Below the pieces are notes generated by a model. It was given only the letters and a program-made list of their open reading frames with translations, did not search any database and was not told the DNA's origin. The translations under genes and the position numbers were made by a program. Source: Escherichia coli (lineage in GTDB: Bacteria > Pseudomonadota > Gammaproteobacteria > Enterobacterales > Enterobacteriaceae). From it: a DNA stretch of 64,000 nucleotides. Below are positions 3,033-3,396 of this stretch, piece by piece. The stretch lies in assembly GCF_003334385.1 (NCBI RefSeq), contig NZ_QOWN01000023.1, one strand, 5' to 3'. The first letter of the stretch is position 1. Each line of letters opens with the position of its first letter.

Positions 3033-3396
3033 AGCCGTTGCCTGATGCGACGCGTAATGCGTCTTATCAGGCCTACAGTGAACAGAACCGTAGGTCGGAT
3101 AAGGCGTTCACGCCGCATCCGACAGCCGTTGCCTGATGCGACGCGTAATGCGTCTTATCAGGCCTACAGTGAACAGAACCGTAGGTCGGATAAGGCGTTC
3201 ACGCCGCATCCGACAGCCGTTGCCTGATGCGACGCGTAATGCGTCTTATCAGGCCTACAGTGAACAGAACCGTAGGTCGGATAAGGCGTTCACGCCGCAT
3301 CCGACAGCCGTTGCCTGATGCGACGCGTAATGCGTCTTATCAGGCCTACAGTGTACAGAACCCCAGGGCGGATATGGCGTTCACGCCGCATCCGAC
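3033..3396. repeat. BIME array: four tandem 91-bp units, each carrying two inverted REP palindromes; fourth unit diverged
   Basis: Unit starts at 3041, 3132, 3223, 3314 (period 91); REP-type palindromes GCCTGATGCGACGCGTAATGCGTCTTATCAGGC and GTAGGTCGGATAAGGCGTTCACGCCGCATCCGAC. Confidence 0.9.

Follow-up and report, generated by a model that had tools for sequence, protein, structure and literature searches.

A rare four-unit BIME-2 array between trmJ and iscR in Escherichia coli

In the Gilson/Bachellier classification, as summarised by Ton-Hoang et al. (2012), bacterial interspersed mosaic elements of class 2 (BIME-2) are extragenic clusters in which Y and Z2 repetitive extragenic palindromes (REPs) alternate in orientation, are joined by short linkers and recur in tandem, in numbers that vary between strains. 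The best experimental model for a role of such clusters at the RNA level is REP325 (naRNA1-6), a BIME-2 lying between yjdM and yjdN in K-12. REP325 makes the upstream mRNA more stable and reduces expression of the downstream gene 8- to 10-fold, with a Rho dependence that is partial and is seen only with a long array, and it has no effect on nucleoid compaction (Harris et al. 2026). Here, we describe a BIME-2 between trmJ and iscR in a 64,000 nt stretch of Escherichia coli DNA (RefSeq assembly GCF_003334385.1, contig NZ_QOWN01000023.1), referred to below as the window and numbered from its first letter. The array carries four 91 bp units, and this is the rarest and longest allele seen among 5,426 complete E. 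coli genomes. Our reading is that it is a polymorphic element of the trmJ 3' untranslated region (UTR) that would serve as a gyrase site on the DNA and, on the RNA, would protect the trmJ 3' end and hold back part of the read-through towards iscR; we place the probability of this reading at about three in four.

The model in which REPs of 3' UTRs act as terminators and stabilisers (Newbury 1987; Espeli 2001; Harris et al. 2026) expects that their removal leaves less upstream mRNA and more downstream read-through, with partial sensitivity to bicyclomycin. Genome-wide, tandem gene pairs with a REP are biased towards expression of the upstream gene. In the model supported by Dar and Sorek (2018), Rho terminates transcription downstream and exonucleases trim the transcript back to protective hairpins such as REPs, with the rut sites lying downstream of these.

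Structure and class of the array

Tandem Repeats Finder detected a single array at 3031-3397, with a period of 91, 4.0 copies, 98% matches and a score of 699. The units lie at 3031-3121, 3122-3212, 3213-3303 and 3304-3394, followed by 3 nt. The first three (3031-3303) are mutually identical, and the fourth differs from them by five substitutions, all within the tail-to-tail linker or the Y palindrome. The first Z2-type REP (3040-3076, + strand) has a stem at 3040-3072, with arms GCCTGATGCGACGC and GCGTCTTATCAGGC around the loop gtaat, followed by a CTAC tail, and further copies are found at +91, +182 and +273 (3131-3167, 3222-3258 and 3313-3349). A 13 nt tail-to-tail linker (3077-3089, AGTGAACAGAACC) recurs every 91 bp and reads AGTGTACAGAACC in unit 4. 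It leads to the first Y-type REP, which is inverted (3090-3123, - strand) and consists of GTAG and a stem at 3094-3123 with arms GTCGGATAAGGCGT and ACGCCGCATCCGAC and the loop tc. This palindrome recurs at 3181-3214 and 3272-3305, and in a degenerate form at 3363-3396 (stem at 3369-3396). The head-to-head linker, AGCCGTT, is 7 nt long (3124-3130) and is also present before the first Z2 (3033-3039). Hairpin energies calculated for the RNA are -21.4 kcal/mol for Z2, -17.4 kcal/mol for Y and -14.6 kcal/mol for the degenerate fourth Y, and the fold of the array region has a z-score of -10.1. The 64 kb window contains the REP core motif 12 times (0.31 expected), with eight of the 12 inside the array, a frequency far beyond chance. 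An earlier reading of the same DNA, made from the sequence only, had described a 91 bp unit with two inverted REP palindromes repeated four times after the trmJ stop codon, and both the repeat analysis and the palindrome mapping bear this out. Further REP-type palindromes in the window are a single one near 10639 (10639-10652) and an inverted pair at 47645/47724 (47645-47737).

The array forms part of the 3' UTR of trmJ, which codes for the tRNA Cm32/Um32 methyltransferase (2291-3031, + strand, stop codon TAA at 3029-3031), and it lies upstream of the co-directional iscR (3574-4062, + strand), the first gene of the isc operon. Both coding sequences (CDS) are given by the list of open reading frames (ORFs) and by the RefSeq annotation of identical loci. 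Between the trmJ stop codon and the first Z2 stem, at 3040, there is a gap of only 8 nt.

Judged by its sequence, in which Z2 palindromes alternate with inverted Y palindromes in tandem, the array is a BIME-2. Its Z2 stems are those of REP325, and its Y differs by one compensated base pair, a C-G to T-A change (GTCGG...CCGAC here, GCCGG...CCGGC in REP325). The elements follow one another as Z2 (+), CTAC, the 13 nt linker, GTAG, Y (-) and the 7 nt linker. The cluster is extragenic, located between the trmJ stop at 3031 and the iscR start at 3574, and the number of tandem copies, 4.0 here, varies among E. coli strains, with alleles of four, three, two and one units. BIME-1 elements combine Y with Z1, have a long L linker with an IHF site, and occur as single copies (Ton-Hoang et al. 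2012). The array has in common with BIME-1 and RIP/RIB elements the inverted REP pairs in intergenic 3' regions, but its palindromes are Z2 rather than Z1, its linkers are short and its copies are in tandem. A BIME-1 or RIP identity was rejected on these grounds and because the IHF consensus WATCAANNNNTTR has no match in 3031-3397. The sequence-only reading noted that BIME arrays bind IHF and gyrase. The IHF part, which is a BIME-1 property, does not apply here, whereas the gyrase part agrees with published cleavage data for the K-12 allele (see below).

Earlier work has already listed the locus as a BIME-2 and reported its cleavage by gyrase, and variation in copy number is a textbook trait of the class. 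The K-12 RefSeq record carries no repeat annotation at the trmJ-iscR locus, and literature searches for REPs, and for variable-number tandem repeats (VNTR) or multiple-locus VNTR analysis (MLVA), at trmJ/iscR found nothing relevant.

Apart from the identical Z2 stems, the likeness to REP325 extends to the order and orientation of the palindromes on the mRNA strand, the co-directional neighbouring genes, the lack of a U-tract, and a match to naRNA4. There are also differences. REP325 has a period of 100 bp, 5.8 copies and 12 palindromes, compared to 91 bp, four copies and eight palindromes here, and its linkers are longer (head-to-head 13 nt and tail-to-tail 17 nt, against 7 nt and 13 nt). REP325 opens with a Y about 18 nt past the stop codon, whereas the array described here opens with a Z2 at 8 nt.

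The Rfam naRNA4 model (RF02564) was derived from a single Y-linker-Z2 pair of REP325, and it matches the array three times, once for each such pair (3093-3164, 3184-3255 and 3275-3346, + strand), with 72.2 bits each against a gathering score of 59.5 bits. The matches cover model positions 1-77, and the sole gap is a 6 nt deletion relative to the 13 nt linker of the model. Three matches above gathering, together with the proposal of Qian (2015) that homologues of REP325 could share its role, would favour an array that encodes naRNA4-like small RNAs which bind HU and help condense the nucleoid. However, RF02564 in effect detects any Y-linker-Z2 pair, and it reaches 57 bits on the opposite strand of the array as well. 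Furthermore, deletion or overexpression of REP325 or naRNA4 leaves nucleoid volume unchanged, and REP-REP contacts were reported as absent and HU-independent (Harris et al. 2026). We regard such a role as highly improbable. As a candidate, a small-RNA gene at the array was rejected; the matches are genuine but reflect the common Y-Z2 repeat and point to no specific gene, and the function itself is contested.

Each Z2-linker-Y pair of the array is also an inverted REP doublet, the type of substrate used by the REP-associated transposase TnpA-REP (RAYT) in REPIN systems. The difference from those systems is that the window has no RAYT gene.

Variation of the site within E. coli and across the Enterobacteriaceae

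Using a 721 bp query, the trmJ-iscR locus was found in all of the complete E. coli genomes (5,426/5,426). The four-unit form is present in exactly 13 of them, and a synthetic five-unit query gave no single-piece match in any, a search that does not rigorously exclude arrays of at least six units. The frequencies of the other forms were estimated in 59 systematically sampled chromosomes. One unit, giving a span of ~448 bp, is carried by about half of these (29/59), a different element in a 476 bp span by about 25% (15/59), three units (630 bp) by eight and two units (539 bp) by six; the remaining chromosome, the top-ranked record, has four. Among representative loci, the alleles differ by whole, identical 91 bp units and the degenerate unit is always the last. 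There are three units in K-12 MG1655, BL21 and strain C, and one diverged unit in CFT073 and UTI89. The orthologous element of K-12 MG1655 and W3110 has the same unit sequence, the same flanks and the same degenerate last unit as the window, and the intergenic regions, 451 bp with three units in K-12 and 542 bp with four in the window, differ by the exact gain of 91 bp. The expectation in the sequence-only reading that copy number would vary between strains was therefore correct, and there is a different-repeat allele in addition.

In the 476 bp class, which includes O157:H7 and O111, the BIME-2 is replaced by another dispersed repeat, found at a median of 15 places per genome. In E. coli O157:H7 NE122 (locus positions 458-776, equivalent to 3020-3576 of the window), the core of the replacement repeat is GGTCCCCTCGCCCCTTCGGGGAGAGGGTTAGGGTGAGGGGA. 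It resembles boxC. The O157-type allele retains only TAAGTGCACGGA of the tail-to-tail linker of the single-unit allele (as in CFT073), and its trmJ is one codon shorter.

Copy number would change by the gain or loss of whole identical 91 bp units, recurrently and fast relative to point mutation, probably through replication slippage or unequal recombination and perhaps with help from the REP-associated transposase. Ton-Hoang et al. (2012) treat between-strain variation in BIME-2 copy number as a property of the class and link it to TnpA-REP recombination, but simple slippage between identical 91 bp units accounts for the alleles equally well.

Over its 64 kb, the window differs from MG1655 by one 91 bp unit, 19 substitutions and a divergent final 76 nt (63925-64000). 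Its haplotype is K-12-like and close to ML35. An 8 kb query that includes the final 76 nt matched up to 23 places per genome and 739 places on plasmids, and these nucleotides probably mark where an insertion sequence ends in the hyfA-hyfB region of the source strain. The flanks of four-unit alleles are of K-12, B and ML35-like type. Of the 13 records with four units, seven are laboratory-strain assemblies with neighbouring accession numbers (TOP10, XL1-Blue, XL10-Gold, Stbl4, BL21(DE3), BL21-RIPL and Rosetta2; NZ_CP080620, CP081007-CP081009, CP081489 and CP083273-CP083274), and the other six are from unrelated isolates (ML35, 600055, N61, cM8a, B19374 and NCTC9080). The XL1-Blue assembly equals MG1655 over 6.2 kb except for the extra unit. 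The BL21(DE3) assembly CP081489 has 46 differences from the window, as many as a three-unit BL21 assembly, and the first ten listed are identical in both.

These laboratory-strain records reflect either recurrent gain of a unit on different backgrounds or a batch of assemblies in which the repeat was over-counted. An artefact could then be suspected in the window too, its source strain having three units like K-12 MG1655. The neighbouring accessions of more than half of the four-unit records (7/13) would fit such an error, as would the exactly K-12 or B flanks of the two records compared, XL1-Blue and BL21(DE3), lineages for which many other assemblies have three units. Yet the window is not laboratory K-12, given its 19 substitutions relative to MG1655, long reads can easily resolve an array of 364 bp, and genuine gain of units is expected of a BIME-2. 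Four units are also found in the six unrelated isolates, which makes the allele as such credible, and we consider an assembly artefact quite unlikely.

The arrangement of trmJ and iscR is conserved in 75 analysable species of Enterobacteriaceae. In 49 of the 75, the interval from the trmJ stop codon to the IscR operators contains a structured element 25 nt or more in length, which makes the slot a long-standing home for palindromic repeats. In another 17, fewer than 25 nt separate the two, leaving essentially no spacer, so no particular element, and no array, is required at this position. In E. albertii, the site holds a single orthologous Z2-Y unit. Salmonella, Citrobacter, Kluyvera, Klebsiella and Enterobacter have their own REP types at the site, each genus with its own REP family and usually with one REP or one pair (about 58-92 nt), and the repeat in K. 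oxytoca resembles that of O157. No element is present in C. freundii, Mangrovibacter and others. Outside E. coli, a multi-unit expansion is seen in just one of the 75 species, Superficieibacter electus (locus positions 3232-3707), where a REP type of its own forms an independent threefold tandem array. In 42 of 57 element-bearing species, despite the genus-specific REP types, the first hairpin (at least 8 pairs) in the 45 nt that follow the trmJ stop begins no more than 15 nt from it, a raw count taken without a null model.

The pattern across strains and genera bears on whether the array has been selected at all. It could be a neutral or selfish repeat, given that REPINs can be maintained and multiply wherever a 3' intergenic site tolerates them, with a copy number that drifts without consequence for trmJ or iscR. 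The high polymorphism of the locus in E. coli, where four to one units or another dispersed repeat may be present, is consistent with this, as are the rarity of the four-unit form (13/5,426), the presence of genus-specific REP types, or of nothing, in other species, and the class-wide variation tied to TnpA-REP recombination by Ton-Hoang et al. (2012). On the other hand, a structured element is kept at the site in 49 of 75 species, gyrase cuts the K-12 allele in vivo, and, whether or not they are under selection, eight stable hairpins in a 3' UTR that is transcribed will influence RNA decay. Drift without consequence is possible but, in our view, less likely than not; a neutral origin and an incidental function are not mutually exclusive.

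Gyrase cleavage and the 3' end of the trmJ transcript

The K-12 allele is listed in Table DS3 of Sutormin et al. (2019) as the BIME-2 '<iscR-<yfhQ', with a length of 265 bp. The Topo-Seq entry gives three cleavage sites with ciprofloxacin, six with rifampicin plus ciprofloxacin, none with microcin B17 and four with oxolinic acid, while most BIME-2 entries in the part of the table examined have no gyrase cleavage sites. In the same study, gyrase cleavage was found to prefer Y over Z2 REPs, and the signal at REPs rose when transcription was blocked by rifampicin. The cleavage of the K-12 allele makes the trmJ-iscR locus an experimentally supported gyrase site. At the DNA level, the four-unit array would be a strong gyrase site, as is the three-unit K-12 allele, where blocking transcription raised cleavage.

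At the RNA level, the array has the layout of the REP 3'-UTR model: it is located in a 3' UTR, both neighbouring genes point the same way, and the hairpins formed by the mRNA strand are stable and lack a U-tract. A scan for intrinsic terminators on the + strand from the trmJ stop to iscR (3031-3574) found none. Transcripts from trmJ would run into eight stable hairpins that lack a U-tract. By analogy with REP325, these hairpins probably protect the 3' end of the trmJ mRNA and partly attenuate read-through to iscR: they would halt 3'-to-5' exonucleases, and so define and stabilise the 3' end, and a long array may attenuate read-through in part via Rho, as for REP325. The stable hairpins, the missing U-tract and a G-poor stretch downstream also fit the picture of Dar and Sorek (2018). 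That stretch is A-rich and covers 144 nt on the 3' side of the array (3397-3540, + strand; A 40%, C 24%, G 15%), overlapping the iscR promoter, and its base composition, considered with the same model, makes it a possible Rho loading region for transcripts that read through from trmJ. A REP hairpin that begins no more than 15 nt past a stop codon is reported to make ribosomes stall and, through stalling or trans-translation, to reduce the output of the upstream gene (Liang, Rudd and Deutscher 2015, as summarised in PMC12306157). The 8 nt gap after the trmJ stop codon falls inside this distance, so the first hairpin would be within range for stalling terminating ribosomes, which may lower the translation of trmJ.

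Several observations weigh against the reading of the array as a gyrase site and 3'-end element. The gyrase data were obtained with the three-unit K-12 allele, and a gyrase role for four units is by extension from it. In the trmJ entries of the term-seq set of Adams et al. (2021), no 3' end is listed within the array, where identical repeats are hard to map, and the single 3' end given for trmJ is within the ORF, 60 nt from its start (MG1655 2663263, minus strand; about 2351, + strand, in the window). The same entries describe this end as very abundant and flag it as not Rho-dependent. Little trmJ transcription may therefore reach the array. The array itself is not rut-like, as its C/G ratio is near 1. 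Finally, any function would be modulatory and dispensable, given that around half of E. coli genomes carry just one unit and about 25% another repeat, and that the spacer is all but missing in 17 of the 75 other Enterobacteriaceae species. As a separate observation, transcription from the trmJ promoter may largely end, or be processed, at ~2351. The supplements of Harris et al. (2026) do not include trmJ.

A stronger role, following the suggestion in the sequence-only reading that the array may block trmJ read-through into iscR, would be that of a dedicated transcriptional insulator that keeps such read-through out of the tightly regulated iscR operon. The lack of an intrinsic terminator between the two genes is in keeping with this, as is the 8- to 10-fold reduction of read-through by REP325, and BIME-2 elements have been cited as topological insulators and attenuators (Ton-Hoang et al. 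2012). However, many E. coli strains and other genera are without the array and yet conserve the iscR promoter and its IscR operators. With the array missing or replaced so widely, it cannot be essential for iscR control. The autoregulation of IscR would be expected to buffer read-through, and the only 3' end among the term-seq entries for trmJ is near the start of the gene. We therefore consider a dedicated insulator unlikely, and favour a 3'-UTR element with partial attenuation.

Flanking features and significance

Two IscR type-1 operators are predicted in the iscR promoter by a consensus search (3441-3465, site A, and 3466-3490, + strand), with one and three mismatches to the published consensus and none expected by chance. 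The end of the array is 44 nt before site A, and so the earlier description of the array as immediately upstream of the iscR promoter was roughly right. In the iscR 5' UTR, just upstream of the Shine-Dalgarno sequence, there is a short GC hairpin following an A-run (3538-3552, + strand; CCCCGGGCAGGGG). It is present in nearly all of 76 aligned Enterobacteriaceae loci, with the outermost of its three predicted pairs disrupted in 2 of these loci. Its stem is nearly invariant and its loop variable, and thus there is no covariation evidence for it; the minus strand of the hairpin scores as terminator-like. Elsewhere in the window, matches at Rfam gathering level are the iscRS stability element (4063-4172), ryfA (11547-11850), IS128 (11982-12190) and sroE (25019-25110), all expected for a K-12-like region.

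The array gives rise to three overlapping ORFs on the + strand (2997-3227, 3136-3318 and 3227-3433, in frames 2, 0 and 1). A length of 91 is not a multiple of three (3x30+1), and they consequently fall in three different frames. With 60-76 codons each they could be proposed to encode small proteins, but they are one repeat read in three frames, they overlap each other, and they are absent from alleles with fewer units. RefSeq/PGAP annotates no gene between trmJ and iscR in any record inspected. A coding role has practically no credibility; the ORF list, the frame comparison and the RefSeq records agree with the earlier view that these are phantom ORFs, and the six-frame ORFs at this site are repeat artefacts.

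A more speculative idea is that BIME-2 copy number serves as a fast-mutating heritable dial, in which the Y palindromes and hairpins would tune supercoiling at the iscR promoter, read-through into isc, or TrmJ output. We consider this very unlikely. If true, strains and laboratory lineages would differ in Fe-S cluster homeostasis or tRNA modification, and the three- and four-unit alleles in the same laboratory lineages would represent real, rapid switching. Should copy number alter isc expression, which is unlikely, a hypervariable repeat would be tied to Fe-S homeostasis.

The wider significance is limited, with little beyond housekeeping involved and the four-unit allele already in public genomes. 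A REP array whose length differs between near-identical genomes does call for caution in assembly comparison and variant calling. For the biology of E. coli, the locus may offer a natural allelic series, from zero to four units, in which the length of a BIME-2 could be related to gyrase recruitment, mRNA 3'-end protection and read-through beside the well-characterised iscR promoter.

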